From the IMG/VR virus record IMGVR_UViG_3300031133_000402: a DNA stretch of 64,000 bases; one strand, given 5' to 3'. Below the pieces are notes generated by a model, which was not told the origin of the DNA, searched no databases, and saw nothing but the letters and a program-made list of their open reading frames with translations. Positions 23,133-48,003 of this stretch are shown here, one piece after another. Position 1 is the stretch's first letter, and each line of letters starts with the position of its first letter. The position numbers were made by a program, and so were the translations under genes. The stretch comes from an uncultured virus (IMG/VR IMGVR_UViG_3300031133_000402). Its lineage: Duplodnaviria; Heunggongvirae; Uroviricota; Caudoviricetes.

Positions 23133-23156
23133 GGGGTGCCGCTGGGGTGTCCGGGG

Positions 23157-28625: not shown

Positions 28626-28637
28626 TAAACTCTTTTC

Positions 28638-28816
28638 GGTTCTCCGGATTATCGGGTTGAAGCCTGAAGTCTTCTAACCGATCCGGTTCTCCGGGGCCCT
28701 GCCGAAGGAGGGCTTGCCGGCGTTTCCGAAGCGAGCCGGGCCAACGCCCAGGCTTTCCTGTGACGGACCTTGCGGTCCGCACGCTCCTCTCGGGTCGAAC
28801 CCCGAGACGGCGGCCG
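28638..28816 (-). ncRNA. putative omegaRNA/reRNA scaffold of tnpB copy 1
   Basis: Several hairpins (UUCG, GCAA loops) 3' of tnpB, with compensatory changes versus copy 2. Confidence 0.7.
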
Positions 28817-30214
28817 TCAGGCCGCCAGAAGTCCGCGCTGCAACACAATGCAAGCGGCGTTGTGGTCCGCATCGAGATCGGCGCCGCAGGAGCAGACGTA
28901 TCTGCTTCCGCGTCTGGCGCCAGGCTCCCGTTCGCCGCAGAGCGAACAGTCGTTGGATGAGTTCATGGGATCCACGGACATGACTCTGCCACCGGCGCTT
29001 GCAGCCTTGTAGCGCATCATTCCGTAGAGGATGGATATTCCAGCATCGTTCATGGCGCGGTTGAGACCACGCTTCTGGGCGACGTTGACGCCGGGCTCGG
29101 TCACCGTGCCGGTGGCCGATCGTGTCATGTTCTTGAGCTTGAGAGCTTCGACGACATTCGTCTCGGCGGCGGTGACCACGTCCTTCGAGACCTTGTGGTG
29201 ATGCGTGCGCCGCCTGTTGGCGGTGGCGTTCCTGGCGCGTGAAAGCGCACGCTTGGCCTTGTTACGACCATGGCTTGCCCGCTTGCAGCGGGCAAGCGCA
29301 CGCGCCAAGCGACGCGTTTCCGGTGCGTCTGCTTTCAGGAACTTCGGATTCTCTACGAAGGTCCCGTCGTCGAACGTCAAGAGACGACGGACGCCAGCGT
29401 CCATACCGCGCACTGTACCAGGTTTGGCATGTGTAGTGGCTACATCGTTGCACTCGCATACGATGCTCGCCCACCAGAACCGTCCATCGTAGGTAAGACG
29501 TACCGTCTTTGCCATTCCCGGCAGATCCCGGTGCATGCGCATGCTCATAGCCCCGTGCCAGAGCAGGGGTGCTTTGAGTTTATCACCGTCAATACTTATG
29601 CCACTTCCAATAGGGCAACCGATCGACCGAACGCGGTCATAAGACTTAAAACGCGGAAAGCCGGGGGTCTTTCCAGCTTTCACGCGCTCGAAGAACGCAT
29701 CCATCGCATTGTGCACGATGTCGACGTGATCTCGAAGCACTTCCAGGGGAATCCGACCGATCCCATCGGGATCGTTCTGTCGGATCAGCGCAAGGCGACG
29801 GTAGTGATCGGCCTTCGATACTGGTCGACCGAAGGATTCGGCAGTCCTGGGTCGCCAGGGGATCGGGTTCAAACCCATCGGATCGGCCTTGGGATCGCCT
29901 GCGGCGATCCTCGGACGGAGCTTGGCGATGCGACGGGCCTCCGACTGCGCGTGACGCCGGCGCAGATCCGATTCCTGACGCACCTGCCAAGCCAGGAATT
30001 CGACGATCTCCTCCTGGCGAACCAAAATCCAGTCTGCCGCAATAGGTTTGTCTCGACCTTGCCGCGCCGCTACGCGGCGCGCTGCTGCATACGAATCCCT
30101 GAGTTCCTGAAGACACGCATTGCGCAATTGCATCAAATGCCAACGCACACCTCTCAAGCTCGCATACATCGCGGTGCTAAGCTTGAGTTTGTGACGTGCG
30201 GTGCGAACCTGCAT
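28817..30214 (-). CDS. tnpB: TnpB RNA-guided endonuclease (465 aa)
   Basis: GFPRFK; RuvC-I GMDAG; RuvC-II VVEALK; CSLC/CSC zinc finger; RuvC-III DADHNAA. Confidence 0.92.
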   Translation of the reverse strand: MQVRTARHKLKLSTAMYASLRGVRWHLMQLRNACLQELRDSYAAARRVAARQGRDKPIAADWILVRQEEIVEFLAWQVRQESDLRRRHAQSEARRIAKLRPRIAAGDPKADPMGLNPIPWRPRTAESFGRPVSKADHYRRLALIRQNDPDGIGRIPLEVLRDHVDIVHNAMDAFFERVKAGKTPGFPRFKSYDRVRSIGCPIGSGISIDGDKLKAPLLWHGAMSMRMHRDLPGMAKTVRLTYDGRFWWASIVCECNDVATTHAKPGTVRGMDAGVRRLLTFDDGTFVENPKFLKADAPETRRLARALARCKRASHGRNKAKRALSRARNATANRRRTHHHKVSKDVVTAAETNVVEALKLKNMTRSATGTVTEPGVNVAQKRGLNRAMNDAGISILYGMMRYKAASAGGRVMSVDPMNSSNDCSLCGEREPGARRGSRYVCSCGADLDADHNAACIVLQRGLLAA

Positions 30215-30221
30215 GGTTATA

Positions 30222-30250
30222 ATCATAGTATCGTGGTTTTGAAGCGTCAA
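30222..30250 (-). promoter_or_regulatory. sigma70 promoter TTGACG-N17-TATGAT, leaderless tnpB start
   Basis: -35 overlaps the left TIR; ATG is 7 nt after the -10; conserved in copy 2. Confidence 0.7.
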
Positions 30251-30275
30251 CCTGATAATCCGCAGAACCCTCTTT

Positions 30276-30491
30276 TCACGACCAGCCGTTGATCACGGCC
30301 ATCCACATTCCGAGCCCCACGGACGTCGCCATGCTCGTCAGGAACAGCACCGTGCTGATGGCTTCCGCCACCCTAGGATGCGTCTTTCCGTAGCGTGCCT
30401 TGGCGTGGCCCGCGAGCGTCACCAGACCCATCGCGACGGCCGCCATGCAGGCGAGTGCCGCCACGCTGATGGCGAAGGTGGCTATTGTCAT
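30276..30491 (-). CDS. small two-TM membrane protein
   Basis: Hydrophobic ORF; its stop codon overlaps the TSD. Confidence 0.6.
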   Translation of the reverse strand: MTIATFAISVAALACMAAVAMGLVTLAGHAKARYGKTHPRVAEAISTVLFLTSMATSVGLGMWMAVINGWS

Positions 30492-30545
30492 CCTGTGCTC
30501 TCCTGGTGTGCGGCATGCGGCCTGCTCGTGGTCGAACCTCCCGCT

Positions 30546-30728
30546 CTAGAGCAGGACCGAGTGTGGAAACGCCGACCTGACGATGTCGAAGTCCGCGCGG
30601 TCCTCGTCCGCGACGACGCATCCCTGGGGGCTGACGATCTTGCCGTTGCGGAACGAGGTGAAGCCTCTCGCCGACAGGCGCTCATGCGCCTCGTCCGCGG
30701 CTCTTTGTCCGAGGGTGCGTTCCTTCAT
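30546..30728 (-). CDS. small hypothetical protein
   Basis: AAGGA RBS, packed gene train. Confidence 0.45.
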   Translation of the reverse strand: MKERTLGQRAADEAHERLSARGFTSFRNGKIVSPQGCVVADEDRADFDIVRSAFPHSVLL

Positions 30729-30731
30729 GGC

Positions 30732-30941
30732 CTAGGTCCTTCCGGGTAGAGCGTCGTTGTGCTGCCGCACGATGCTCTCGGCGACCGCCTGTGCCGCCTC
30801 CGGCGACAACCAGCCGCCCGTGACCCGCACGGTCGCGTCGTGGATCGTGTCGAGGTTGCCCTCCGCTCCGACGCACCACACGCCGTCCAGTTTGCGAGCC
30901 GACCAGGGTTCCACGAGATCTTCGATATGCTTTCCGGCCAT
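30732..30941 (-). CDS. small hypothetical protein
   Basis: 69-aa ORF, GGAG RBS. Confidence 0.5.
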   Translation of the reverse strand: MAGKHIEDLVEPWSARKLDGVWCVGAEGNLDTIHDATVRVTGGWLSPEAAQAVAESIVRQHNDALPGRT

Positions 30942-30954
30942 CAGTCCGCTCCCG

Positions 30955-31281
30955 TCACTTCGCCTGCCGCGCCCGCATCGCCGCGCGCGCGGACACCATG
31001 CCCTGGATGAATTCGGACTTGGTGAGCGTCCCGTTTCCGTTCGCGTCCATGTCCCGCCATCCCTGCGGCTTCACCAGCACGCCGAGATTGCGGCTGGCGC
31101 CGTAGGCGCTGAGCTCGGTCTTCGTCATCCTGCCGTTCCGGTCCGCGTCGACCCGGTCGAAGATGATGGAGAGCTCCTTGACGTCGAGCTCGGTCGGCAC
31201 CGGCACTGGCGCTGGCGCTGTCTGCCCCGATGCCACGGTGCCGGTCGTGAGCGCGATGGCGGCGATCAGGAAGTGTCGCAT
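30955..31281 (-). CDS. secreted EF-hand protein
   Basis: Signal peptide MRHFLIAAIALTTGTVASG; DADRNGRMTKTE and DANGNGTLTKSE EF-hand loops. Confidence 0.8.
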   Translation of the reverse strand: MRHFLIAAIALTTGTVASGQTAPAPVPVPTELDVKELSIIFDRVDADRNGRMTKTELSAYGASRNLGVLVKPQGWRDMDANGNGTLTKSEFIQGMVSARAAMRARQAK

Positions 31282-31384
31282 GGTTTTCAATACCCCTCGG
31301 TGGTCTGGATGGTGACGGTTTCGATCGCCGATGTCCACTCCGGCGCGACGCCCGAGCAGCCTGCCTGGTGGATCTCGGCGAACA

Positions 31385-31729
31385 TCACTGTCCGAATTCC
31401 CTCTTCAGCGTCTCGTACTGGCGCCGTCGCGCGGCGGTCGCCTCGTCCTCTTCGTCTTCCTCTTCGTCCTTTTCGTCGCTCATGAGCGCGAAGACGTCCT
31501 CCTGGCTCATCACGGTGGCGACCGTGACGATCAGGACGTGCTTGATGCCGCCGTCGGCGTCGGGATAGCCGTAGTCCTCCTGGAGCAGCTTGGCGACTTC
31601 CTTGGCGGCGTCCTCGGGCGTGGTCGCCGCGAGTGGAATCGTCTTCTCGGCGCAGCCGATGGTGTAGTCGCAACCCTCCGCCGCCTCCTTGACCACGGCC
31701 GCGTACTGTCCTGGCTTGAATGTCTTCAC
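31385..31729 (-). CDS. hypothetical protein (phage-like, acidic tail)
   Basis: EGCDYTIGC motif, ends RRRQYETLKREFG. Confidence 0.6.
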   Translation of the reverse strand: MKTFKPGQYAAVVKEAAEGCDYTIGCAEKTIPLAATTPEDAAKEVAKLLQEDYGYPDADGGIKHVLIVTVATVMSQEDVFALMSDEKDEEEDEEDEATAARRRQYETLKREFGQ

Positions 31730-31792
31730 GTCTCGGCTTCCTCGATGATTCGTACTTGCGTTGTGGATCCCGTCATTCGCGCGGCGGGAGTG

Positions 31793-31954
31793 CTAGACCC
31801 TCTCGGGTCGCCGACCCTTCATGTAGCGCTTGTACGGCTCGTAGCCGGAGACGAAGTGCGCACCGGCGCCGAGATGCTTCAGAAGTCGGGAGCCGAGGAT
31901 GCGACCGTTGCGCTTGGCGCGGCGGCATCCGCTGCAGGTGCATGGTTTGAACAT
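31793..31954 (-). CDS. small Cys/Arg-rich protein
   Basis: MFKPCTCSGCRR with GGAGG RBS. Confidence 0.45.
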   Translation of the reverse strand: MFKPCTCSGCRRAKRNGRILGSRLLKHLGAGAHFVSGYEPYKRYMKGRRPERV

Positions 31955-32005
31955 CTCTTTTCCCTCCTGTTGCGGTCTCGTCCGCCATTCCGTCACCCGG
32001 AACGA

Positions 32006-32341
32006 TCACGCGTAGCGACAGGTCCCGAGTCCACCGGGCAGCGCCCTCTGCTGCGCCACCAGCGTCTTGACGACCTCGTTCTCCTCGTCCGTCACGCGTC
32101 CGTCTGCGATGTACTCGTCGAGGCGGCCGGCGATCGCGGGACATCCCTTCTTGTACGAATTCACGTCGTTCACACGGACCCTGGTCTCGAAGTGGTTCTC
32201 GAATTCCACCAGTTGCCGCTCGTTCCATGCGATCATCTGCCACATCGCGATGGGGATGAGCACGATCGCCATGATCATGGCGAGCAACTGCGTCCCGTTT
32301 AGATGGACGCGTCCATCATGGTCGTTCGTCACCGTCTTCAT
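32006..32341 (-). CDS. membrane protein, family E (TM + DG.VT..E motif)
   Basis: CPAIAGRLDEYIADGRVTDEE...LPGGLGTC; paralogous to 45604-46023. Confidence 0.65.
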   Translation of the reverse strand: MKTVTNDHDGRVHLNGTQLLAMIMAIVLIPIAMWQMIAWNERQLVEFENHFETRVRVNDVNSYKKGCPAIAGRLDEYIADGRVTDEENEVVKTLVAQQRALPGGLGTCRYA

Positions 32342-32673
32342 GAGTTTCCCTCCATTGCCGGAATGATTTCGCGGTATTCGTCGGGGCCCGCGTGGGTGCA
32401 GATCCGTTTCATGCGGTCGTAGACATCCTGCGGCACGCGTTCGATCTTGTCCCTGGACAGCACGCGGCGGTAGTGGTCGGCGGCGCCGGTGCCGAGCACC
32501 GCGACCCACTTCATACCCTCGTCGAGATTGCGTTGCGGATCGCCGCGAAACCCACGGGTGTGATCGCGCGCCATGTGCTCGCGCCAGTCGGGCCGGTCGA
32601 GACGCGACACCATCCGGTGCCGGTTCGAAGTGCATCGGTAGCCGGAATCGATGAGGCGGGTCGCTTCGTCCAT
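32338..32673 (-). CDS. hypothetical protein
   Basis: Start MDEATRL with AAGGA RBS. Confidence 0.55.
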   Translation of the reverse strand: MDEATRLIDSGYRCTSNRHRMVSRLDRPDWREHMARDHTRGFRGDPQRNLDEGMKWVAVLGTGAADHYRRVLSRDKIERVPQDVYDRMKRICTHAGPDEYREIIPAMEGNS

Positions 32674-32708
32674 CGTGGTCGTCCTTTTCGTTGCGGACTC
32701 GTCCGCGA

Positions 32709-33905
32709 TCAGAGGCATTGCCCTTTCGGCCGTTCGAACATCCTGCAGTTCCAGCGGAACCGCTCGAAGTCGTGCTCGCGGTCGCGCAGGTAGCTGAACG
32801 CCATCGCGTCGAACTGCTCGGGTGTGATCTGGGTCGAGGCGTCCTTCGGCACGCTTTTGGGATCTGTCCAGACGATGAACTTGCAGCTGGTACGCTTGCC
32901 GCACGAACGCTGCGCCTGATCCTGGAAGCTCGCCAAGTCCTTCGCCTTCAGGACGACGAGGAATACGTCCTTGTCGTCCGCCATGGGCTGGTGCACCGTC
33001 GCGTTAGTCTTGTCGCCGGCGGCGTCCGCGAGAGGTGGCGTCGTGGCGGCGGTTTCGACGCCCGGGATGTCGATCGGGTTCGCCGGATCGACGATCGCGT
33101 CCGGCATCCGATGCGCGGTGAAGCGATCGGCCAGTTTGGCGACGTACGGCTCCTTGCCCGCGTACTGGTATCGGAACGCCGTCGGCGTGCCCCACCATCC
33201 GGTCCAACGGAAGAACAGGTGGGTATGCACGGCCGTGATCTTGTCCAGGCTCGAGCTCCAGTAGGGCACGACCCAGTCGGTATGGTAGTGTGTCGCGTAC
33301 CCGACGGGTTTGTACACCTTGCCCGAGAGCGCGGCGTCGGCGTTCACCCTGGCGTCCCGCCACGAGGTCTCGGGATAGGTGCGCGCGAGGGCGCCGTCGC
33401 ATGCGAAGGTGAACTGGCAGCCGGTGTGGCGTTCCGACCCTTGGAACACGACGCCGCAGACGGTCTTGGGGAACGCCGGATGACGCACCCGGTTGAGAAC
33501 GACCTGCGCCACGGCACGCTGCCCGACGGGGTCGTTGCCGGCCTCGTAGAGCACGACCGCCGCCAGGCAGTCGAGTGCTCGCTGCCGATCCTCGCCCTTG
33601 GCCGGCGCCCTGAACGGACGCGCCGCCGGATTGGGGGCGGCGCTGAAGGGGATGGTCGCATTGAACGACCTGGCGTCCACTGGCGCCAGATCGCGGTACT
33701 TCACGGGTTCCACCGCTGGCACCACGGTCGGAGGCACGACCTTCGCCCCCGTGGACCGTGCCGTCCGTTCTTGTCCAAGGACGTCATCCGTGGTTCTTCC
33801 GGTGGCGACCGCCGTCATGATGCCGATGATCGTCAGGACCATGATGCCTGCAAGGATGATGGTCGTGCGCCACGACGGCCTGATGGTTCTCGGGGTCGCC
33901 GTCAT
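32709..33905 (-). CDS. cell wall hydrolase, SleB/Hydrolase_2 family
   Basis: CLAAVVLYEAG...AVAQVVLNRVRHPAFPKTVCGVVFQG...CQFTF...ATHYHTDWVVPYW; N-terminal TM. Confidence 0.92.
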   Translation of the reverse strand: MTATPRTIRPSWRTTIILAGIMVLTIIGIMTAVATGRTTDDVLGQERTARSTGAKVVPPTVVPAVEPVKYRDLAPVDARSFNATIPFSAAPNPAARPFRAPAKGEDRQRALDCLAAVVLYEAGNDPVGQRAVAQVVLNRVRHPAFPKTVCGVVFQGSERHTGCQFTFACDGALARTYPETSWRDARVNADAALSGKVYKPVGYATHYHTDWVVPYWSSSLDKITAVHTHLFFRWTGWWGTPTAFRYQYAGKEPYVAKLADRFTAHRMPDAIVDPANPIDIPGVETAATTPPLADAAGDKTNATVHQPMADDKDVFLVVLKAKDLASFQDQAQRSCGKRTSCKFIVWTDPKSVPKDASTQITPEQFDAMAFSYLRDREHDFERFRWNCRMFERPKGQCL

Positions 33906-34219
33906 CTCTCGGGCTCCGCGTCGATCACGCACAGCCATCCCTCGATGTCGATGTCCTCGTGCACGTCGCCCGTCGAGACGCGCATGACGGTTCCGTCCTG
34001 CGGTACGATCACGTCGCCGATCCAGCGGTGGTGTCCTTGCGGACGGTTGCAGTCGAGCGCGACCTTCGACCGTGTCGAAACTGCTCCGGTCGTCTCGGGA
34101 CGCGCGGGAACCTCGGCCTTGGCCGATGTCGCGTCAGTCGCCATGTTGTAGCCGACGACGCCCGCGAAGGGGGCGAGAAGCAGGGCGAGTGCGATCTGCG
34201 AGCCGTGGCGTCTGGTCAT
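33902..34219 (-). CDS. secreted/membrane-anchored hypothetical protein
   Basis: N-terminal hydrophobic segment; ATGA overlap with the hydrolase. Confidence 0.55.
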   Translation of the reverse strand: MTRRHGSQIALALLLAPFAGVVGYNMATDATSAKAEVPARPETTGAVSTRSKVALDCNRPQGHHRWIGDVIVPQDGTVMRVSTGDVHEDIDIEGWLCVIDAEPER

Positions 34220-34413
34220 GCGGAGTCTCCGGTGCTTCGATGCGACCGAGCGCCCTCATGTGTGGGCATTGCGGCGTGATCGTTGTGATTGTGGCAATGA
34301 GAGGCAATCGTCGGATGCGGGTCTTCGTCCCGCCTCGCGATGACGTTTTCCTCTTCGTCCATGTCTTCGCGAATCTCTATTCACCTGTCGGGCCGCGACG
34401 CGGTCAGATGCCG

Positions 34414-34444
34414 AAAGGCCCGCCTCCGTCAGGGGCGGGCCTTT
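34414..34444. terminator. intrinsic terminator-like hairpin
   Basis: AAAGGCCCGCC...GGCGGGCCTTT just 3' of the 34475-35755 gene. Confidence 0.65.
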
Positions 34445-34474
34445 GCATCGTCCATCATGCGGAGGCTCATCGAA

Positions 34475-35755
34475 TCACGGCGCGCAGAGATACTCGTTGA
34501 GCGCAGGACCGTCGGTGAGCTTGCATCCCGATTCCTCGGGTGTCGAATCGATGTAGTAGTTCGCGGGCAGACCGGAGGTGGCGCTCGTGCCTTTGATTCC
34601 GCGTACCAGCGTGAAGTTCTGCAGCCCCTCGCTTGCGTTCGGTACGAGCGTCATCGTCGCGGACGTTCCTCCCCCCGCGGCGGTGGCCAGGGCCTGCCCG
34701 GCGAACGGGAAGGTCGACGTCGCCGACAGCACGATCTCGAACGTGATCTTGCCCGTCGCCTTCACCTTGTACTGCTTGGAGACTTCGCACCTGGACGGGA
34801 AGTTCATGTTCGTCGTCCAGGTGGCGAGTACCGGGTTGGCGTCGTAGTAGCCGGCTATCCTCGACACGCAGTAGTCGTACGCCCTGTCGGAGATCTCCCC
34901 TTGCGTCAGCGGCGCGTCGACGACGAAGGTCTCCCGCGATATGATGCTGGCGTTTGTCTGCGTCTTCGAATCCGTGCTCGTTGCGGACCAGTCGGTGATT
35001 CCCCGCTTCTTCCAATTCGTCATGTCCAGCGTCGGGGTCACCTTGAGATCCGGCGTGGTTCCGGCGTTTGGCTTGGCCCCGAGGATTCTCGCGTCGCACT
35101 GGCTGTCGCTGCTGGCCGTGTCGCTGTTCTTGTAGCTGCAGATGTAGGAGTAGGCGTTCCTGATCGTCCATGGTCCGTTGACGCTGGCTCCCTTGATCCC
35201 GAACGGGTTCATGTTCCAGGTCTTCTTCCACTGGTAGTCGCACGCCGTCGTGACGCCCGTCGTCTCGCTCGTGTCGGGCTTCGTTGTCTTGCAGTACTGG
35301 CTTTCGTTCACGTCAACGATGTAGCCGTCGAAGTCGCGCTTGCACTGCACGGACCGCGTGTGCGACGCGGATGCCGAACAAGTGCTCGACCAGGCGCCGT
35401 ACTCGCCCGTGATCCAGCTGTACGTGCATGTCGCGTAGCTCGTCGTCGGATTGCTCTGCGGCGGCTTCGCGCCGATGGCGGCGATGCACTGCCCGTCGTC
35501 CACGACCGCGTTCGCGGCGTTCCGGCACGTCGCGATGCTCGTCTGCACCGTGGTGCCGCATCCCGGTGTCACCACCCACGGGGTGGTGTCCCAGTGCAGA
35601 CCGGTTTTGCCGGTCCCGGGTTCCGGCGTCACTGGTGGCGGAAGCCGCGGGTTGGGCGATGCGATGGTGCGTCTCATGACGACGACGTCTTGCGCGTGCA
35701 CGGTTGCGCCCAGGCCGACGAATGCGCTGGTCGCGAGCAGGATGAAGTGTTTCAT
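34475..35755 (-). CDS. secreted Cys-rich protein with thrombospondin type-1-like repeats
   Basis: Signal peptide; WITGEYGAWSSTCSASASHTRSVQC and WDTTPW...CGTTVQTSIATC...VDDGQC. Confidence 0.7.
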   Translation of the reverse strand: MKHFILLATSAFVGLGATVHAQDVVVMRRTIASPNPRLPPPVTPEPGTGKTGLHWDTTPWVVTPGCGTTVQTSIATCRNAANAVVDDGQCIAAIGAKPPQSNPTTSYATCTYSWITGEYGAWSSTCSASASHTRSVQCKRDFDGYIVDVNESQYCKTTKPDTSETTGVTTACDYQWKKTWNMNPFGIKGASVNGPWTIRNAYSYICSYKNSDTASSDSQCDARILGAKPNAGTTPDLKVTPTLDMTNWKKRGITDWSATSTDSKTQTNASIISRETFVVDAPLTQGEISDRAYDYCVSRIAGYYDANPVLATWTTNMNFPSRCEVSKQYKVKATGKITFEIVLSATSTFPFAGQALATAAGGGTSATMTLVPNASEGLQNFTLVRGIKGTSATSGLPANYYIDSTPEESGCKLTDGPALNEYLCAP

Positions 35756-36106
35756 GCCGTCAGGCTACCACGCCCTGCTCTTGGCGGTCCATCCTGAAAA
35801 TCCCATGACGGTCGTCTTCGGAATCCCAGTTTACCGCCCCATGACGTTTTCCGCATCGCCCCTGATGATCATTTGCGATCCGCTCCAGATCGGCCAGGTT
35901 TCCTTCAGGACGATCGTCACCCGCTTGTCGGCGACATCGCCGCCTTGTGATCTCGTCGTGTCGGGCTGTCCGTACGCCGGCTGGCCGTGCGCGTCGGATT
36001 TGGTCTGGTTGTCCGTGGTTGCCCGTTTCGACGTCACGTCATCATCTCCGATTGGTCCCATGGACCGATAGGCCAGATAGCGACGGACTTCGCAAGCGTC
36101 ATCGGG

Positions 36107-36676
36107 TCAGTCGGCCATCTCCAGTCGGCCTTTCGGCGGCCCATCCAATTCGAGGAGGTCCTCTTCGAGGAACATGGCCATGAAGTCCGCGACCTCGTCG
36201 AGCGGCTGTTCGTCGGGCATTTCGCCTTCGACGTAGAAGAGCAGCATCGCCTCGGCCACGCCGTCCGGTATGGTCGTCCAGTGCGGATCGTACGGATCGA
36301 TGTCGTAGAAGTCGCCGGCCCGGAGCGGCAGCCCCTCGGGAACGCCGGCGTCGTCGAGCCTCTGCGAATGCAGGCGGTGACCATCCGACCGGATCACGAG
36401 GCCGTAGACGTGCATGCCGGGCTCCGCGCCCTCCAGGTCCTGATGCCTCTCGACTGCGCGTTGGCAGACGTACAGACCATGGAGATCAGTCTTCGCGGTA
36501 TCCACTTCGGGTTTGGTGTGCCGTGCCAGACCTTCCTCTCCCAGACGCTGGGCTATCCGCAACGTCTCGGGGCTCGGCCTCCATGCCGACGACAACACGC
36601 GGGGAAGGAAGCCTTGGCCGTCTGTCGTTGCGCTTCCGGGCTGGTTGTCTTTGGAATCCATGCGCTCATTGCTCAT
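36107..36676 (-). CDS. hypothetical protein, possible cupin/double-stranded beta-helix
   Basis: VERHQD...LRAGDFYDIDPYDPHW pattern. Confidence 0.5.
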   Translation of the reverse strand: MSNERMDSKDNQPGSATTDGQGFLPRVLSSAWRPSPETLRIAQRLGEEGLARHTKPEVDTAKTDLHGLYVCQRAVERHQDLEGAEPGMHVYGLVIRSDGHRLHSQRLDDAGVPEGLPLRAGDFYDIDPYDPHWTTIPDGVAEAMLLFYVEGEMPDEQPLDEVADFMAMFLEEDLLELDGPPKGRLEMAD

Positions 36677-36996: not shown

Positions 36997-37017
36997 GTCG
37001 TGCTCTCCTCGTTGGCG

Positions 37018-39562: not shown

Positions 39563-39581
39563 CGTCCGCTCTCCATCTCGA

Positions 39582-40679: not shown

Positions 40680-40703
40680 GTGATGGCCTTTCCGACCGGG
40701 TGG

Positions 40704-41264
40704 TCAGTAGCTGTCGGCGATGACCTCGTATTCGAAGCCGGTTTCGGTCGCGAAAACCCGGATGCGCGGACTGTAGCCCGAGCGGTCGACATGCATCTCG
40801 TAGGCGCCTCGCCCTTCGTGTTCGACGTAGACGGGCTCCATGACGCCGTGCAGGTTGTCGTAGAGGCGCTCACCCTTGTGGTCGCCGTAGTCGACGTGCT
40901 CGTAGAACCTGTCGGGTGTCGGGCCGGCGCAGACGACGAGCGAGCTCGCGAACACCGCTCCGGCGTTCTCGAATCGGTAGTCGTCCATCATGTCGCGCCA
41001 GCTGTCGTAGCCCTCCTTGTCCATGAGCGGCTTGCGGAACGCATCGGCGATCGCCTTGTCGAGATCGCCGCGCAGGTTCGGCACGGCGCGCGCGGTGACC
41101 GTCCCGTCGGCTGCCTCCACCGTCTCGATCAGGCGTCCGTCCTCGTGCTCGAAGGCCCGCACCATGCCCTGCGCCGTCCTGGTGCGCGATCTGCGCTTCC
41201 AGTCCGATGGCTTGGTGTCGGGATGCAGTCGCGTGAGTTCGGTCTTGATGGCGTCGCTGCTCAT
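40704..41264 (-). CDS. hypothetical protein
   Basis: 186-aa ORF with good codon bias. Confidence 0.65.
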   Translation of the reverse strand: MSSDAIKTELTRLHPDTKPSDWKRRSRTRTAQGMVRAFEHEDGRLIETVEAADGTVTARAVPNLRGDLDKAIADAFRKPLMDKEGYDSWRDMMDDYRFENAGAVFASSLVVCAGPTPDRFYEHVDYGDHKGERLYDNLHGVMEPVYVEHEGRGAYEMHVDRSGYSPRIRVFATETGFEYEVIADSY

Positions 41265-41336
41265 GGTCGATTCCCTGTCAGGTGATTGCGTTGGTCATGA
41301 CCTCCGCGATGCGTCGGCGATCACGGGAGACGCCGA

Positions 41337-42365
41337 TCAGGCGGCGTCTTGTTCGCCGGTTTCGGCCTCGCATGTCGGGACGACGTGGGGATGTCGCCTT
41401 CTGAGGAATTTCAGATGCGCGATCAACGCGTCGCTCTTCTCGCTGCGCTCCAGCGTCAGACCCTCCTCGATCGTGGCGGCGATGATGTCGAGACCCTCGT
41501 CGAAGTGCCGCACGACCTCGGCGCGTCCGGCGTCCGTCGTCGCTTCCCCCAGAGCGTCGTCGCGCTTGGCGATAAGCTCAGGCAGGTGCCGTTCCACCAG
41601 CGGCGTCAGCGGCGTCCCGTCGGCATCGACCAGGTCCGGCACCAGCGCCACGGCGGCATGTCCCACGCGCAGAACCTCCGACTCCCTGGAGTCGCCCTCG
41701 ACCGAGACGGGTTGCACCATGTTGGCGCTGAGATTGCTCATTCGCACCAGCGCACGCGCCTTGAGATCGCCCAGAGCCTTCTGCATGTCGTGGTAGAAGA
41801 GACCCACGGTGCCATGCGAATCCGTGCGCGCCCAGGCTTGATGCGGCATCTGCCAAGTCGACCTGTCGAACTTCGCGGCCACTTCCACGCCATTGCCTAT
41901 GTCCAGCCATTCGCCGTCCGGGTGCACAGTCATCGCGCCGATCTTCTGTTCGATGCGACGCATCAACGCTCGTCTGACGACGTTCTGCGTGTCGCGCCTT
42001 GGCTTTCGTCGCAGCAACTTGTCGATGCGGGTGAGCGGCACGAACGCGAAGAACTCGGGATTCTCGATCGGGCAGTCTCCGCCTAGCTTCTTCAGGATGG
42101 CATGGGCCTGCACGGCTTCGTAGGCTCGGTGCATCGTCTTCTTTCCCGCGACGGAGATGACGTCGTCTCCCCGCAGAATGCGCGTCCGCATGTTGCATTC
42201 ATAGTCGTTGAACGATGCCGTTATCTCGATCGTGATCCCGTTGGACAGGTTGAGCGTCGTGAGGGAAAATTCCTCTTGGAAGACGGGTGCGAGCGTGTCG
42301 CGCGCGGCCCAGATCGAGAGCCCCACGTCCCGCAGGAACGCGTCGGTCGCATCGGCGCTGGTCAT
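41337..42365 (-). CDS. protein with XpaC-like C-terminus (family D, no TM)
   Basis: DLVDADGTPLTPLVERHLPELI...DALIAHLKFLRRRH. Confidence 0.65.
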   Translation of the reverse strand: MTSADATDAFLRDVGLSIWAARDTLAPVFQEEFSLTTLNLSNGITIEITASFNDYECNMRTRILRGDDVISVAGKKTMHRAYEAVQAHAILKKLGGDCPIENPEFFAFVPLTRIDKLLRRKPRRDTQNVVRRALMRRIEQKIGAMTVHPDGEWLDIGNGVEVAAKFDRSTWQMPHQAWARTDSHGTVGLFYHDMQKALGDLKARALVRMSNLSANMVQPVSVEGDSRESEVLRVGHAAVALVPDLVDADGTPLTPLVERHLPELIAKRDDALGEATTDAGRAEVVRHFDEGLDIIAATIEEGLTLERSEKSDALIAHLKFLRRRHPHVVPTCEAETGEQDAA

Positions 42366-42386
42366 GGTCGTCTGCCTTTCCGGTGG

Positions 42387-42917
42387 TTAGTTGTGGGCGT
42401 ACGGCACGGGGTCAATGTCCAACGCTGTGTAGCCGTTCTCCCGCAGCCAGCGCTCGCGTGCGTCGTGGTCCGTCGTCGCCTCCAGCGCCGCCTTCACGTC
42501 CGGCGGCCCGACGAGCACGTCGTAGTCCTCGCCGAAGCGTTCGCGTTCGTGCAGCAGCAGATCGGTCTCGTCGAAGATCGTCGGGAAGACGCGCACCGCC
42601 TCCCCGATGATCGACGCCACGTCGTTGAAGCGGTTGGTCTCGTCGCCCGGCTTGATCCGGAAGGACGGCGTGACGTAGCCGTCGCCGTCCTTCTTGTTCA
42701 GGTACAGCGCCTCCTTGGCGTCGACGCGGCGCTTGATCTGATGACCGTCGAGCGGATGCCTCGGCACGCCGCCGCCCATGCGCAGGATCTGCGCGACGCT
42801 GCCGTCGGGCCGCACGACGGGCGTGGTCTTCGTCTTCACCTCGAAGGCGCCGTAGTAGTGCTCGCCTCCGATCGACGCCCGCAGGGACGTGATGGTTAGC
42901 ATGACGATGTCGCGCAT
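42387..42917 (-). CDS. hypothetical protein
   Basis: 176-aa ORF, GAGGAG RBS. Confidence 0.65.
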   Translation of the reverse strand: MRDIVMLTITSLRASIGGEHYYGAFEVKTKTTPVVRPDGSVAQILRMGGGVPRHPLDGHQIKRRVDAKEALYLNKKDGDGYVTPSFRIKPGDETNRFNDVASIIGEAVRVFPTIFDETDLLLHERERFGEDYDVLVGPPDVKAALEATTDHDARERWLRENGYTALDIDPVPYAHN

Positions 42918-42975
42918 TCCGGTTCTCCTCGTCCGCGTCGAATGCGCGGGTCGCGTCTTTTCCCCTTTCGGGTCC

Positions 42976-43281
42976 TCAGACGCCTCCGTTCCGCCCCATC
43001 ACGCCCTTCATGATCTCGTCCAGGCTGGGGCGCCTGATGTCTGTCGTCGTGACGAAGGCCGTCTCGACGTCGACGACGACGTAGCCGAGCGCCCGCAAGG
43101 CGGCCGGCACGGCATCCATGCGCTCGTCGGCCGTGTCTCCTTCGATCACGTGCGGCTCGTCGAAGATCGGCTCGTCGAATGCGAGCGTGTCGGACTGCAC
43201 GAGAAGGTATCGCGAATAGTAGACGTTGCCGTCCTCGCGTGAATGTCCGTCGCTGGTCACGACGACGATGCGCTGGTTCAT
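42976..43281 (-). CDS. hypothetical protein
   Basis: Start MNQRIVV, GGAG RBS, ATGA overlap. Confidence 0.55.
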   Translation of the reverse strand: MNQRIVVVTSDGHSREDGNVYYSRYLLVQSDTLAFDEPIFDEPHVIEGDTADERMDAVPAALRALGYVVVDVETAFVTTTDIRRPSLDEIMKGVMGRNGGV

Positions 43282-43904
43282 GACGGGGTTCTCCGTTCGC
43301 GTGTGTCTTCGTCGTCGAGCGTGCTGAACGCGAGGTCCGTCACCGCATCCGCGGCCCAGCGGCGCAGGTCCGGGTCCAGCCGGGCCGCCAAGGGCACGTA
43401 GTGTCCCGTCAGCATGGGATCGTACGTGAGGGCCTCCCCGCGCACGCCGAAAGCGGGGTCGCGCGGGACGAACTTGCGGCGCCGATCGCTCGGCTGGTTC
43501 ACCGCGCACGTCTGCGACGCGATTCCGGCCTCGGATTCGACCGTGACGATGAGCGTCATTCTCGCCTTCGGATGCCTGCCCGGATCCTTGCCGGAGGCCA
43601 GCCAGGCTTCCACGTCTGCCGCGTCGCTATCGTCGGTTGTGTCGAACTCCAGACGCTCGTAGGCGATCGCCGTGCGCGTCGCTCTCGCCTTCATGCACGC
43701 CAGACGCAGCGCGTCCATGACGTCCTCCTCGCCTTCACCTTCGCCGCGTCCCTTCGGCGCGATCATGGTGCGCGTGCCGTCGGCATCCATGTAGGCGCCG
43801 AAGGGCTGGCGACGACGTCTGCGCGAATAGAGGCCCCTGGCGATCCCGACGATCTCCGCCAGGAACGCGAGGTCTCCTGCGCCTGCTTCGTGCATCGTCT
43901 TCAT
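43278..43904 (-). CDS. hypothetical protein
   Basis: Start MKTMHEAG, ATGA overlap. Confidence 0.6.
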   Translation of the reverse strand: MKTMHEAGAGDLAFLAEIVGIARGLYSRRRRRQPFGAYMDADGTRTMIAPKGRGEGEGEEDVMDALRLACMKARATRTAIAYERLEFDTTDDSDAADVEAWLASGKDPGRHPKARMTLIVTVESEAGIASQTCAVNQPSDRRRKFVPRDPAFGVRGEALTYDPMLTGHYVPLAARLDPDLRRWAADAVTDLAFSTLDDEDTRERRTPS

Positions 43905-44419
43905 CCTCGAATGGTGTTGCTCGTGATCGTCGTTTCTTGCGTCGCGAGGTGGCCCGAGAGCTGGTCGTCGAAGAAGGGCATCAGCAGGAAGTGGTCCGCA
44001 CCTTCGGGACACGTGGCGTCGTGATGCCGTCCGTCCAGCACCAGCCAGTTGTGCGTCATCGCTCCGAGGAGGCCGGCCAGCGCGTCGTCGTCGATGCCGG
44101 ATGGCAACGGCGCCCCCTCCCGTCTGAGACGGGGAATGTCCATGTGGAAGGGGTCGGCCTCCTCGTCGCCGTCATCGTCGACGACCATGGTCCACCAGTC
44201 CTCGGTGACCACGTCCACCAGTCGGGCATGACTGTCTTCGGGCGCGTAGCCCGCACCGTGTCCGGCCACGCCCAGCCGGCGCATGACGGCCTGCGCGAAG
44301 TCGTAGCAGTGGCCGTCGCCGATCGCGCGTGCGTCGGCGACGGTGCCCGCCATGATCCACGCCTCGCGTTCTGCGACGATGGCGGCCGACAGCTCTGCCG
44401 TCGTCGGCTTGTCGGTCAT
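43901..44419 (-). CDS. hypothetical protein with Cys-His-Asp motifs (possible papain/transglutaminase-like fold)
   Basis: GHCYDFA...THNWLVLDGRHHDATCPEG. Confidence 0.55.
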   Translation of the reverse strand: MTDKPTTAELSAAIVAEREAWIMAGTVADARAIGDGHCYDFAQAVMRRLGVAGHGAGYAPEDSHARLVDVVTEDWWTMVVDDDGDEEADPFHMDIPRLRREGAPLPSGIDDDALAGLLGAMTHNWLVLDGRHHDATCPEGADHFLLMPFFDDQLSGHLATQETTITSNTIRG

Positions 44420-44451
44420 GCGCCACCTCGTCGTGGATGGAGATCCCGGTG

Positions 44452-45051
44452 TCAGACCAGCTTGCGCGCCTGCGCCATCACGGTCTCGTCGGCGCCGTTC
44501 ACGAGCGTGCCCTTGATCTTGCCCGCGGCGATCGCCTTGCTCACGGACGCCAGCGCTTCGGGCGTCGGCTTGCCCTTGTACGTGAAGAGCGCGTCCTCGC
44601 CATTTTCCTTGTCCATGACCAGGATCTTGGTGTTGAGCAGGCGCGCGAGGCGCTTGCGCTGCAGCTCGTCCTCGACGAGGTCGCCGACGACCATCTCGAG
44701 CGAGTTGTCGAGCATCATGCCGTGGCAGTCGATCTGCGGCGTGGTCGCCTTCAGCCAGGCGTCGATCTCGCGCTCGTCCGGACCGTCGTACGCCTTGATG
44801 CGGTGGTACATGTCGGCGCCGCCGGTTCCGTGGTTCGACGCGTCGAACGCGGGCACGCCGTCGATCAGCACGACCGCGGTGTAGGCGTTGGTCTCCTCCG
44901 ACAGCGAGGGCGAGTGCTTCAGCTTCGAGATGCCGATGGCCATCGAGCGAGGCTTCGCCTTGGTGCCGCCGGCGATCCATGCGTCGATCTCGGGGTGGAT
45001 GCGGATCACGGCTTGCACGCCGTCTTCGGTCTGCACTGCGAGTAGGGTCAA
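44452..45051 (-). CDS. hypothetical protein (phage-like)
   Basis: SEETNAYTA...ASNHGTGG motif; TTG start with AAGGAG RBS. Confidence 0.65.
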   Translation of the reverse strand: MTLLAVQTEDGVQAVIRIHPEIDAWIAGGTKAKPRSMAIGISKLKHSPSLSEETNAYTAVVLIDGVPAFDASNHGTGGADMYHRIKAYDGPDEREIDAWLKATTPQIDCHGMMLDNSLEMVVGDLVEDELQRKRLARLLNTKILVMDKENGEDALFTYKGKPTPEALASVSKAIAAGKIKGTLVNGADETVMAQARKLV

Positions 45052-45093
45052 TTCACGTCTCCTTGGTCTTCGGGTGATGGATCGTCGTTCGGA

Positions 45094-45537
45094 TCAGAAG
45101 CAGCGCCAGATCGTCGTCGCGACCGGGTTGAGCCACCAGAAAGGCTTGCGCGCCTCGACCATCTGCTGGACTACGTTGTGCGTGCCGCCCTTGTTGCCGT
45201 CCCACACGACGATGCCGGCCTGCGCACGCTCGACCATGTGGCGGTTGCGGACGTGGCTCACCTTGGCCGCGCGCCCGATCAGCCGGTCGCGGAGCAGGCG
45301 TTCGTCTTCGGCCATTTCGAGACGCTGGTCCTCGAAGGGTATGCACGCCTCGTACGGTATGCCGAGATCGACGCAGGCCTGGCAGAACCACAGATCCACG
45401 CCGCTCGCCATGCCCGCGTAGGCGTAGGACGTCGGCTTGTCGGGATCGACCAGCGTTTCGGCGATCGCCAGCCTTATCCAGTCCGTGTCGTAGTTCTGCA
45501 GCTTGAACAACCGGTGACCGGTCACGAGCGTCTTCAT
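45094..45537 (-). CDS. YspA-like SLOG family protein
   Basis: VTGHR...GMASGVDLW...IPF...RNRHMVE...VWDGNKGGT. Confidence 0.8.
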   Translation of the reverse strand: MKTLVTGHRLFKLQNYDTDWIRLAIAETLVDPDKPTSYAYAGMASGVDLWFCQACVDLGIPYEACIPFEDQRLEMAEDERLLRDRLIGRAAKVSHVRNRHMVERAQAGIVVWDGNKGGTHNVVQQMVEARKPFWWLNPVATTIWRCF

Positions 45538-45603
45538 GATCGGTCTCCCGCATCCGTGTCGTTTCAGGTGTCGTCGTCACCCTTCGTCCTGGTCGCAGCT
45601 TGC

Positions 45604-46023
45604 TCAGATTCCAGGGATCGTGAGGCTGGAGCCGCGATCGAGATGCATCGGCGCGACGGTGCAGGCGGCGAGACCTCCGGGCAGCGCGCGCACCCGCTCG
45701 ACGTGCGTGTCGAGGACGCCGATCTCCGCCTCGTCGACGGACCCGTCGCTCATCGCCCGGCGGGCCGGCTCCACGGCGGACGGACACTCGGTCTCGATGG
45801 CCTTGGCGTAGCGCATGCCGGCATCGTCGATCATGCGGTTGGTCGTGGCCGCCATGCTGAAGGGGATCTGCGGTGCCGCGACCAGCGCCGCGCACGCGGC
45901 CAGCATGCAGAACCCCAGCAAGTGCATCACGATGTCGGCCTTCCAGGTGGACGTCGTGGCCTGCTTCGCGTCGTAGGCGCTGCCATCGTGCCGGCGCCGC
46001 GACGTGTCGTCGATCTCGTCCAT
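45604..46023 (-). CDS. membrane protein, family E
   Basis: CPSAVEPARRAMSDGSVDEAE...LPGGLAAC. Confidence 0.6.
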   Translation of the reverse strand: MDEIDDTSRRRHDGSAYDAKQATTSTWKADIVMHLLGFCMLAACAALVAAPQIPFSMAATTNRMIDDAGMRYAKAIETECPSAVEPARRAMSDGSVDEAEIGVLDTHVERVRALPGGLAACTVAPMHLDRGSSLTIPGI

Positions 46024-46281
46024 CGTCGAAAGTCCCCCTTGTCGTAAGTGCGTGAGTGGCGTCAGTAGCCGTCCGCGTCGATGTCGTCGGCCGACACTTC
46101 GTAGCCGAGGTCGATCGCGGTCTTCTCGGCGTCTTGGCGGCTGCCGAGATACGTCGCGAGAATGCGCGGATCGTCCTGATCCTCGAGCGGAGAGAAGTCC
46201 CGCAGGGGATCCACGGCGTCGAGCGCTGCGGCCAGATCGGCTGTGACGACGTGCCAGAAGTCGGTTCTGCGGATTATCGGG

Positions 46282-46310
46282 TTGATGCTTCAAAACCAAG
46301 TGGTTATGAT
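46282..46310 (+). promoter_or_regulatory. sigma70 promoter TTGATG-N17-TATGAT, leaderless tnpB start
   Basis: Same position as in copy 1; ATG at 46318. Confidence 0.7.
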
Positions 46311-46317
46311 TATAACC

Positions 46318-47715
46318 ATGCAGGTTCGCACCGCACGTCACAAGCTGAAGCCTAGCACAGCAACGTATACGAGTTTGAGAGGTGTGCGGTGGCATTTGAT
46401 GCATCTGCGCAATGCGTGTCTTCAAGAGCTTCGTGATTCGTACGTGGCAGCGCGCCGCGTAGCGGCGCGACACGGTCGAGACAAACCCATCGCCGCGGAC
46501 TGGATCTTGGTTCGCCAGGAGGAGATCGTTGAATTCCTGTCCTGGCAGGTGCGACAAGAATCGGATCTGCGCCGGCGTCACGCGCAGTTAGAGACCCGTC
46601 GCATTGCCAAACTCCATCTCAGGATCGCAGCGGGAGATCCCAAGGTCGATCCAACCGATTTGAACCCGGCTCCTTGGAGGTCCAGAACGGCCGAATCCTT
46701 CGGTCGACCAATATCAAAGGCTGATCACTACCGCCGCCTTGCGCTGATTCGCCAGAACGATCCCGAGGGGATTGGGCGGATTCCCGTTGCAGTACTTCGA
46801 GATCAAGTTGACATCGTGCACAAGGCGATGGACGCATTCTTTGAACGCGTGAAGGCGGGGAAAACTCCCGGCTTTCCGCGCTTCAAGTCCTACGACCGCA
46901 TTCGATCATTGGGCTCCCCGATCGGTGGAGGAATCAGTCTCGAAGGAGACCTTCTAAAAGCACCCATGCTCTGGCATGGTGCCATACGCATGCGTATGCA
47001 CAGGGATCTGCCAGGTGTAGGAAAGACGGTACGTCTCACCTACGATGGTAGGTTCTGGTGGGCCAGCATCGTCTGCGAATGTGGCGATGCAGCCACTACG
47101 CACGCCAGACCAGGCACAGTGCGAGGCATTGACGCCGGCGTCCGTCGTCTTTTGACGTTTGATGACGGGTCCTTTGTAGATAATCCGAAGTTCCTGAAGG
47201 AAGACGCACCGGAAACGCGTCGATTGGCGCGTGCGCTTGCCCGCTGCAAGCGAGCAAGCCATGGTCGCAACAAAGCCAAGCGTACGCTGGCGCGCGCCAA
47301 GAACGCCACCGCCAACAGGCGGCGCACGCATCACCACAAGGTCTCGAAGGACGTGGTCGCCGCCGCCGAGACGAATGTCGTCGAGGCTTTGAAGCTCAAG
47401 AACATGATGCGCTCGGCTGCCGGGACGGTGGCAGTACCCGGCGTCAATGTCGCCCAGAAGCGCGGTCTCAACCGCGGCATGAATGACGCGGCAATATCCA
47501 TCCTCTACGGAATGATCCGCTACAAGGCTGCAAGCGCCGGTGGCAGGGTTATCGCCGTGGTTCCCATGAACTCGTCCAACGACTGTTCGCTTTGCGGCGA
47601 ACGGGAGCCCGGCGCCAGACGGGGAAGCAGATATGTCTGCTCCTGCGGTGCCGATCTCGATGCGGACCACAACGGCGCTCGCATCGTGCTGCAGCGCGGA
47701 CTTTTGGCGGCCTGA
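46318..47715 (+). CDS. tnpB: TnpB RNA-guided endonuclease (465 aa)
   Basis: GIDAG, VVEALK, CSLC/CSC, DADHNGA; close paralogue of copy 1. Confidence 0.92.
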   Translation: MQVRTARHKLKPSTATYTSLRGVRWHLMHLRNACLQELRDSYVAARRVAARHGRDKPIAADWILVRQEEIVEFLSWQVRQESDLRRRHAQLETRRIAKLHLRIAAGDPKVDPTDLNPAPWRSRTAESFGRPISKADHYRRLALIRQNDPEGIGRIPVAVLRDQVDIVHKAMDAFFERVKAGKTPGFPRFKSYDRIRSLGSPIGGGISLEGDLLKAPMLWHGAIRMRMHRDLPGVGKTVRLTYDGRFWWASIVCECGDAATTHARPGTVRGIDAGVRRLLTFDDGSFVDNPKFLKEDAPETRRLARALARCKRASHGRNKAKRTLARAKNATANRRRTHHHKVSKDVVAAAETNVVEALKLKNMMRSAAGTVAVPGVNVAQKRGLNRGMNDAAISILYGMIRYKAASAGGRVIAVVPMNSSNDCSLCGEREPGARRGSRYVCSCGADLDADHNGARIVLQRGLLAA

Positions 47716-47894
47716 CGGCCGCCGTCTCGGGGTTCGACCCGAGAGGAGCGTGCGAATCGCAAGATTCGTCACAGGAAAGCCTAGGCGTTGGCTTGGCTCG
47801 CTCCGGAAACGCCGGCAAGCCCTCCTTCGGCAGGGCCCCGGAGAACCGGATCGGGTTGAAGCCTTCAGGCTTCAACCCGAGAATCCGGAGAACC
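47716..47894 (+). ncRNA. putative omegaRNA/reRNA scaffold of tnpB copy 2
   Basis: GAATC-GCAA-GATTC vs GGACC-GCAA-GGTCC in copy 1; 13-bp hairpin tcgggttgaagcc-ttca-ggcttcaacccga. Confidence 0.7.
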
Positions 47895-48003
47895 CAGAAG
47901 TCGTCGGGATCGCGTCCACCGCTCACGACGTTGATCAGCACCGCCTGTTTTTTCGCCGTGCATCCTGGCGCCATGTAGACGGACTGCTTGGCTGCTTCCG
48001 TCT

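Follow-up and report, generated by a model that had tools for sequence, protein, structure and literature searches.

A 64,000-nucleotide stretch of IMG/VR record IMGVR_UViG_3300031133_000402, catalogued as an uncultured virus and referred to here in its whole length as the window, contains two transposable elements of 1632 bp each that lie in opposite orientation. The sole cargo of either element is an intact gene for the RNA-guided nuclease TnpB, followed by a conserved structured 3' tail, and both elements are enclosed by terminal inverted repeats (TIRs) and by target-site duplications (TSDs). The features of the two copies, including a neighbouring open reading frame (ORF) at each, are as follows.

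28630-28637: TSD of copy 1, CTCTTTTC, on the right-end side of the element
28638-30269, minus strand: element copy 1, 1632 bp, tnpB-only, with ISL3-type ends
28638-28663, minus strand: right-end TIR of copy 1, GGTTCTCCGGATTATCGGGTTGAAGC read inward, identical at 22 of 26 positions to the end of an autonomous ISL3 element
28638-28816, minus strand: non-coding tail of copy 1, 179 nt, candidate omega-RNA scaffold, terminating in the right-end hairpin
28820-30214, minus strand: tnpB of copy 1, 465 amino acids (P0002), stop codon at 28817-28819
30222-30250, minus strand: promoter-like site of copy 1, TTGACG, 17 nt, TATGAT, with the -35 hexamer within the left TIR
30244-30269, minus strand: left-end TIR of copy 1
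30270-30277: TSD of copy 1, CTCTTTTC, overlapping the stop codon of a 71-amino-acid ORF (30279-30491, minus strand)
46062-48010, minus strand: approximate span of the hypothetical ORF of about 100 amino acids that is split by copy 2
46255-46262: TSD of copy 2, CAGAAGTC
46263-47894, plus strand: element copy 2, 1632 bp, which contigs of three other runs lack along with one of the TSD copies
46263-46288, plus strand: left-end TIR of copy 2
46282-46310, plus strand: promoter-like site of copy 2, TTGATG, 17 nt, TATGAT, with the -35 hexamer within the left TIR
46318-47712, plus strand: tnpB of copy 2, 465 amino acids (P0001), stop codon at 47713-47715
47716-47894, plus strand: non-coding tail of copy 2, 179 nt, a series of hairpins, candidate omega-RNA scaffold
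47837-47894, plus strand: right-end hairpin of copy 2, inner complement plus TIR core, with the stem at 47851-47863 / 47868-47880
47895-47902: TSD of copy 2, CAGAAGTC, which on the model would supply the first guide bases

The boundaries of the elements are sharp. A self-comparison of the window and an alignment indicate that the two copies are 87% complementary over their whole length, with the likeness running exactly from GGTTCT to AGAACC and the flanks being unrelated. The 26-base ends of each copy are inverted repeats of one another with 23 of 26 positions identical, and the perfect 8-bp duplications lie directly outside the repeats. The end motif occurs four times in the 64-kb window, these being the four element ends, and not once in 100 shuffles. 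An initial annotation, made from the sequence alone, had described two elements of this equal length with TIRs of about 26 bp starting in GGTTCT, each with its own perfect 8-bp TSD, and all of these points are upheld. The same annotation had assigned to each copy only a TnpB with an intact RuvC D/E/D triad and zinc finger, which the profile searches and the alignment of 21 sequences described below also bear out.

The single long ORF of each copy encodes 465 amino acids and matches the Pfam families OrfB_IS605 and Cas12f1-like_TNB (PF01385, 2e-19; PF07282, 4e-14). It scores 165.7 bits on the NCBIfam guided_TnpB model NF040570, for which the cut-off is 100, whereas scores on the models for TnpBs of the IS200/IS605 and IS607 insertion sequence (IS) families fall below their cut-offs (95.5 bits against 350 for NF038280, the IS607 model). 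The RuvC residues D272, E356 and D450 and the zinc-finger cysteines C423, C426 and C443 are invariant among the 21 aligned members of the clade. Judged by the triad, the zinc-finger/TNB region and the profile matches, the protein is a member of the TnpB family. The comparison of the two copies gives a ratio of nonsynonymous to synonymous divergence (dN/dS) of 0.12 at a dS of 0.53, which points to an intact gene under purifying selection. Close relatives are few: among the matches listed there are 33 (P0003-P0035) at 42-71% identity, one of them from Novosphingobium terrae, and P0021, from Novosphingobium, is 63% identical to the window protein. A scan of genome contigs with the protein found a 26%-identical Ktedonobacteraceae protein as the sole relative, the plasmid collection contained no close relative (all matches below 60% identity) and the viral contigs contained none. 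A metagenome scan with the clade alignment, which gave over-general patterns and from which 80 loci were kept, recovered only one locus of the close clade, the window itself.

Evidence for mobility comes from assembled Logan contigs of four public phyllosphere runs (X1, X3, X4 and X7), which were mapped to copy 2 and its flanks. The site is filled in X1. In X3, X4 and X7, which belong to three studies, one contig each joins position 46253 to 47894 and thereby skips 1640 bp, the 1632 bp of the element and the 8 bp of one duplication. The flanks of these empty-site contigs are 95-99% alike to the window and one TSD copy is retained. Since contigs of three other studies join the flanks with the loss of exactly 1640 bp, copy 2 is a true insertion polymorphism, and its mobility is documented by the empty allele. 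The loose ends at element boundaries in X1 belong to the flanks of copy 1 only, so that two junction types and no third are seen.

Copy 2 splits a predicted minus-strand hypothetical ORF of about 100 amino acids, with about 36 codons above the insertion and 66 below. The G+C content at third codon positions (GC3) in this frame is 0.76-0.84 across the rebuilt junction and no family is assigned to the product. Copy 1 is positioned directly after the stop codon of the 71-amino-acid ORF. The statement that copy 2 cleanly interrupts a gene therefore stands as far as the insertion is concerned, which is clean in the empty sites of three runs, whereas the gene itself is only this predicted ORF. The two copies are 13% different, and for this reason neither is a fresh duplicate of the other. 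Together with the dS value this divergence agrees with the two independent insertions proposed initially: the copies are two separate arrivals of one family, both kept intact by selection.

Ends of this form are known from some elements of the ISL3 family, which prompted tests of the ends themselves. A degenerate motif derived from the ends of the TnpB elements, GGNTMTNCGGMWTNNNNGGTTGA, was searched with one mismatch allowed and with the reversed pattern as control. On plasmid pWW0 (116,580 bp) it gives exactly two matches and the control none, and the two matches bound a segment of 3372 bp with a PF01610 (DDE_Tnp_ISL3) ORF that is annotated as the ISPpu12 transposase. When the viral contigs were searched for exact matches to a tighter motif, the two loci obtained were both ends of one ISL3 element. 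The complete ISL3 element at locus L102 is 2300 bp long, encodes a transposase with 42.6% identity to the ISPpu12 enzyme and is flanked by the 8-bp duplication AAAATCTA; the same element occurs at locus L100 and on an E. coli plasmid. The four window ends have 19-22 of 26 bases in common with the end of this autonomous element. Clear ends of ISKpn25 and ISRso21 were not recovered by a simple repeat finder, and these two elements were not used. Because of the motif matches on pWW0, the matching ends at L102 and the 19-22 shared bases, the chassis of both copies is classified, on sequence grounds that go beyond resemblance, as ISL3-type, with the type of TIR and the 8-bp TSD that define this family; the element at L102 likewise duplicates 8 bp.

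The window elements therefore share with ISPpu12 and the L102/L100 element, and with transposase-less derivatives of the family, the end motif GGnTnTnCGGATT....GGTTGA and the 8-bp duplication. With the miniature inverted-repeat elements (MITEs) and cassettes of ISL3 they would also share the dependence on a transposase in trans. They differ in their cargo, which is an RNA-guided nuclease with its candidate RNA scaffold in place of a DDE transposase or nothing, and in their right end, where an added inner complement makes the repeat a hairpin.

Two further observations concern these ends. The window ends are closer to the autonomous ISL3 end than to those of the sister TnpB elements introduced below, with which they have just 15-18 of 26 bases in common, and the repeats may follow different resident subfamilies of ISL3. 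Part of the repeat at the left end of ISPpu12 (pWW0, record 84397-84441; L092) likewise has an inner complement, TTGATGGGG...CCCCATCAA, and hairpins close to the ends may therefore have come to the TnpB elements as an ISL3 trait and not as an invention of their own.

The two copies are not isolated. Nine complete tnpB-only elements with related inverted ends were collected, comprising the two in the window and sister elements at about 40% protein identity from metagenomes (L003, L012, L005 and L004), two Bosea plasmids (L083 and L084) and a Methylobacterium aquaticum plasmid (L105). Eight of the nine have perfect 8-bp duplications, all different in sequence. Both further copies and empty alleles, which the initial annotation had named as checks, have thus been found, the latter for copy 2 in X3, X4 and X7. 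Incomplete copies lie at three further loci (L029, L031 and L032) and there are two solo ends. No transposase is present in cis at any of the loci with TIRs, whether complete (9), incomplete (3) or solo (2). Of 47 more distant loci, 9 have an IS200-type Y1 transposase adjoining tnpB, an arrangement that none of the TIR loci shows.

A quick maximum-likelihood tree of 64 rows, whose root depends on one long branch, places every element with inverted ends in one clade of 38 rows (SH-aLRT support 98) and all Y1-linked loci outside it. The window clade comprises 16 rows with a support of 100 and is sister, with a support of 83, to the clade that holds the other TIR elements. Two loci inside the 38-row clade, L017 and L007, have no such ends. 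The combination of tnpB with inverted ends is a trait of a lineage and not a one-off. The simplest history that the tree suggests would be one or a few captures of an IS605-type tnpB by an ISL3-type carrier.

Several of the collected loci have neighbours that deserve a brief record. One of the solo ends (L090; Bosea sp. RAC05 plasmid NZ_CP016463.1, record 526997-527019) is found directly after a gene for an AbiEii-family toxin, with a tyrosine recombinase near and neither tnpB nor a transposase nearby. At L034 (5282-7213) a distant tnpB adjoins a gene of the chimallin family, the shell protein of the phage nucleus (PF25677, 2e-52), and for this reason that TnpB element is assigned to the interior of a nucleus-forming jumbo phage. 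At L067 (240-5138) a ribonucleotide reductase with an intein and a LAGLIDADG domain is encoded directly upstream of an element with a Y1 transposase and tnpB.

Between the stop codon and the right end of each window element lie 179 nt that are 93% identical between the copies, compared with 86% for the ORF. This tail folds much more stably than its shuffles do, with z values of -5.9 and -3.1. In the comparison of the two copies, which are two sequences only, three compensatory and three one-sided pair-preserving changes fall in 66 predicted pairs and no pair is broken. The last stem of the predicted fold is formed by the right inverted repeat and its inner complement. Such a right-end hairpin is predicted in all eight elements that were folded and a left-end hairpin in none. 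Across six sister elements, two of its 13 pairs carry compensatory changes and the three central pairs are mostly open, with 74.7% of cells paired as against 23-45% when the partners are slid. No Rfam family was matched in the window. A sigma-70-like promoter site is present in both left ends with its -35 hexamer inside the left repeat, and no terminator-like site was found between the stop codon and the right end in either copy. Because there is no terminator, transcription would continue into the flank and a guide would start with the duplicated eight bases. In this model the tail fits an omega-RNA scaffold that would run through the repeat into the flank.

It is quite probable that each copy is a non-autonomous ISL3-family derivative with tnpB and a guide-RNA scaffold as sole cargo and a transposase acting in trans. 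The transposase that moves both copies is probably encoded elsewhere, because the cargo is tnpB only and yet the ends are of ISL3 type and flanked by 8-bp duplications. This agrees in substance with the initial annotation, which had proposed a TnpB captured by a DDE-mobilised non-autonomous element on an ISL3-like chassis with GG-starting TIRs: the ISPpu12 and L102 end matches, the TSDs, the lack of an encoded transposase and the empty allele all support it. Its further statement that no transposase lies in the window is corroborated by family profile searches, which found no transposase family except TnpB in 55 + 68 window ORFs, and by tblastn.

A number of results weigh against this interpretation. 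The tblastn search with an ISL3 transposase found nothing in the window or in any fetched flank. The two Bosea plasmids (692 and 709 kb) contain no ISL3 transposase partner, and on the Methylobacterium and Methylorubrum plasmids the PF01610 matches are weak or unrelated and their ends do not match; searches with PF01610 and the end motif over the Bosea, M. extorquens and M. aquaticum plasmids gave no partner with matching ends, and a 60-nt right end had no meaningful match in the plasmid collection. No element was seen that combines tnpB with an ISL3 transposase in cis, so that mobilisation in trans is deduced for a partner that was not found in the window, the fetched flanks or the plasmids searched. 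At L004 just five of the eight flank bases match. Copy 1 has a partly decayed inner arm in its right-end hairpin. The contigs of RNA library X4 include the empty site and a short piece that resembles copy 1, and they are uninformative on transcript ends. No motif resembling a target-adjacent motif (TAM) is conserved upstream of the TSD in seven elements; position -2 from the left TSD is G in six of the seven (TGC, CGT, CGG, CGA, TGG, CGA and CTC), a weak signal in a flank sample that is small and GC-rich and too little to call this G a TAM. Finally, according to the account of the family in a preprint (bioRxiv 10.1101/2023.06.07.543989), circles are formed by ISL3 elements, and their movement is presumed to be of the copy-out-paste-in type. 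Such a route keeps the donor copy and therefore weakens the rationale that TnpB restores the element after excision.

The failure to find a transposase within 64 kb would also be expected if the elements were stranded fossils, whose partner was lost and whose tnpB was either kept for another role, such as defence or regulation, or is slowly decaying. The 13% divergence, by which neither copy is a fresh copy of the other, and the presence of just two junction types in the source run are compatible with this, as is the estimate, in the part of Altae-Tran et al. that deals with mobility (PMC10691335), that 89% of TnpB clusters look immobile. Against it, copy 2 is missing from strains whose flanks are 95-99% identical, which implies a recent insertion or a recent precise loss, and in each of the copies the two ends, the TSDs, the tail and the ORF, with its dN/dS of 0.12, are intact. 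A fossil origin is accordingly considered unlikely.

A transposase acting in trans need not be of the ISL3 family. Several IS families make 8-bp TSDs, and as no partner was seen the family is deduced from the ends and the length of the TSD alone. The elements could hence be moved by a DDE transposase of another family with 8-bp TSDs (for example IS1595, IS6, IS256 or hAT-like), in which case the likeness to ISL3 would be convergent. The 19-22 of 26 end positions held in common with an autonomous 8-bp-TSD ISL3 element, in a comparison made with ISL3 ends only, and the fact that the degenerate motif matches nothing on pWW0 but the ends of the ISL3 element make such convergence distinctly improbable, somewhat more so than a fossil origin.

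All nine complete elements contain tnpB alone and no partner was found in any record searched, which raises the question of whether this TnpB clade is autonomous and itself cuts and inserts DNA. The clade has an enlarged N-terminal region of roughly 85 amino acids, which is covered by just 4 of 150 listed cluster representatives. The ends, on the other hand, are of the kind found on ISL3 elements with a DDE transposase of their own, DNA transposition is not known for any TnpB, and tnpB is dispensable for the transposition of IS608 in the account of that element given by the 2026 review (PMC13565253), so that autonomy is very improbable.

Least credible of all is an ordinary element of the IS1341 group of IS200/IS605, moved by a Y1 HUH transposase and with 'TIRs' that are in reality subterminal hairpins, since, although the protein scores on the IS200/IS605 and IS607 models (if below their cut-offs), the right end carries a hairpin and more distant relatives are Y1-linked, such elements have neither TSD nor TIRs as the review defines them (PMC13565253), eight of nine elements have perfect 8-bp TSDs of unrelated sequence of which the empty site retains one copy, the left end has no hairpin and no target motif is conserved in the left flank.

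Having weighed these alternatives, the derivation of both copies from the ISL3 family can be compared with the systems already described. The passages of the review that define IS200/IS605 and IS607 elements state that these have neither TIRs nor TSDs (PMC13565253), in agreement with the initial annotation. The window element lies outside both families for this reason, although its protein still descends from theirs. With the IS1341 group it shares a single tnpB and a structured 3' tail that reaches the right end, and its wider relatives are Y1-linked; IS1341 elements, in contrast, insert next to a fixed short motif, whereas the window elements have no fixed flank motif and a hairpin at the right end only. 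Membership of IS607 was rejected as well, as TIRs and TSDs are present, the flanks contain no recombinase and the NF038280 score is far below its cut-off.

The closest published counterparts are prokaryotic. The portions of Altae-Tran et al. (2023, PNAS, PMC10691335) on DDE-associated TnpBs describe six branches, DDE-1 to DDE-6, all with inverted terminal repeats, in which no more than 250 bp separate the 3' end of TnpB from the transposon end, and solo TnpBs that have the same ends and are moved in trans. The window elements correspond to this description, being prokaryotic TnpBs in an inverted-repeat transposon with 26-bp TIRs and 179 nt beyond the gene, and their transposase-less state has its parallel in copies that are presumed to move in trans. 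The families named for DDE-linked TnpB are IS630 in those portions of the paper and ISL2, IS630 and IS1031 in the corresponding passage of the review (PMC13565253); ISL3 is not among the families named there, and no member of the window type with a transposase in cis was found. A full-text literature search returned no paper that links TnpB to ISL3, which may nevertheless be represented in those six branches. The background on TnpB hosts given in the initial annotation was out of date and the novelty of its mechanism overstated: DDE-linked inverted-repeat TnpBs and solo TnpBs had been described in that paper in 2023. The general phenomenon is published, and the gain here is one of detail and not of concept.

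The parallel with Fanzor proteins, which had also been drawn initially, is valid, but it is not new as a concept. As far as the relevant parts of the Fanzor papers describe them (Bao & Jurka 2013, PMC3627910; Yoon et al. 2023, PMC10711439), Fanzor1 and Fanzor2* are TnpB-family nucleases captured by transposons with TIRs and TSDs, often non-autonomous ones. In the Fanzor elements covered there (PMC10711439) the TIR and the TSD lie within the RNA, the TIR being inside the scaffold, and a further 15 nt or so of RNA follow the TSD, an arrangement that the tail model for the window elements resembles. The differences are that the window host is bacterial and that the protein is a canonical TnpB by NCBIfam. 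In addition, the 8-bp TSD of the window elements is variable in sequence and therefore cannot be a fixed part of the scaffold, unlike in Fanzor.

On the proposed mechanism, an ISL3-family DDE transposase encoded elsewhere would bind both ends and insert the element, with a staggered cut at insertion that would leave the 8-bp duplication. The tnpB gene would be transcribed from the promoter with its -35 box in the left repeat, and the 179-nt tail after the stop codon would fold into the RNA scaffold, the last stem of which would be the right repeat paired with its inner complement. The transcript would then run on into the flank, so that the guide would begin with the duplicated eight bases. 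The nuclease may cut alleles without the element, or the site after precise loss, and so favour the copying of the element back in. Given copy-out-paste-in, the cutting of empty alleles would be a more natural role for TnpB than the re-cutting of a donor after scarless excision. The lineage would derive from TnpBs of IS200/IS605 type, with the carrier changed once or a few times. These steps can be drawn together, tentatively and with more doubt than confidence, into an obligate hitch-hiker lineage in which the right repeat would be both the site of the ISL3 transposase as DNA and the last stem of the guide scaffold as RNA, each insertion would write a guide that starts with its own 8-bp TSD, and the nuclease would promote the spread of the element into empty alleles.

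The surroundings of the elements point to the host. A neighbouring M3 peptidase has its best named matches in Sphingomonas (70%) and other Sphingomonadales, and judged by such matches the host is a bacterium. A Fanzor, or a giant-virus or eukaryotic origin, was considered because only 8 of 68 GC3-supported window ORFs have a Pfam match (E<=1e-4); it was rejected in view of the Sphingomonadales matches of the peptidase and the lack of relatives in viral contigs. PHROG matches are found for 6 of 38 ORFs, which leaves the region unusually short of known families, and a hypothetical neighbour protein had no match in the plasmids. The window genes are nearly all on the minus strand and the window proteins are found on a 1.27-Mb contig; a 329-kb contig contains the window as well. 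The two Bosea 'plasmids' of about 700 kb with sister elements look similar, with many hypothetical genes, ndk, tmk, an adenylate-kinase-like gene and an aminoacyl-tRNA hydrolase. The region may be part of a large extrachromosomal replicon of unknown type.

Other features of the window are of separate interest. The gene adjoining copy 1 (28088-28420, minus strand) encodes a PTH2-type peptidyl-tRNA hydrolase (PF01981, 1e-13), a type typical of archaea and eukaryotes and unusual in bacteria. Two adjacent ORFs at 22703-23807 (minus strand) both match phrog_14850, of unknown function (5e-38 and 1e-44), and constitute a tandem duplicate of a phage-type gene. The region 5400-20300 contains a paralogous gene family of at least 5-7 copies and the direct-repeat families D1-D4, with blocks of 45-93 nt at 60-80% identity; further copies of these repeats lie near 54.7-58.9 kb, and the ORFs of 5400-20300 have no Pfam match.

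Cas12 has its ancestor in TnpB, a compact nuclease for genome editing, whose benefit to the carrier transposon has been worked out only for IS200/IS605 and IS607. The window provides a clean, bounded example on an ISL3 chassis, with a natural empty allele, intact copies and cultured relatives in Bosea, Methylobacterium and Novosphingobium, and for these reasons it represents a tractable system. It raises the questions of how a guide is specified when the flank starts with a variable 8-bp duplication, of what use TnpB is to a transposon that is thought not to excise, and of the bacterial route of the carrier switch that also produced the Fanzors. Two features appear worth experiment, namely a repeat that doubles as an RNA stem and a guide obliged to start with a variable 8-bp duplication. 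If the hitch-hiker reading were true, the repeats would track whichever ISL3 subfamily resides in the host, TnpB would have a role other than repair after excision in a copy-out-paste-in transposon, and the double-duty right repeat would be a bacterial counterpart of the RNA architecture of Fanzor1.

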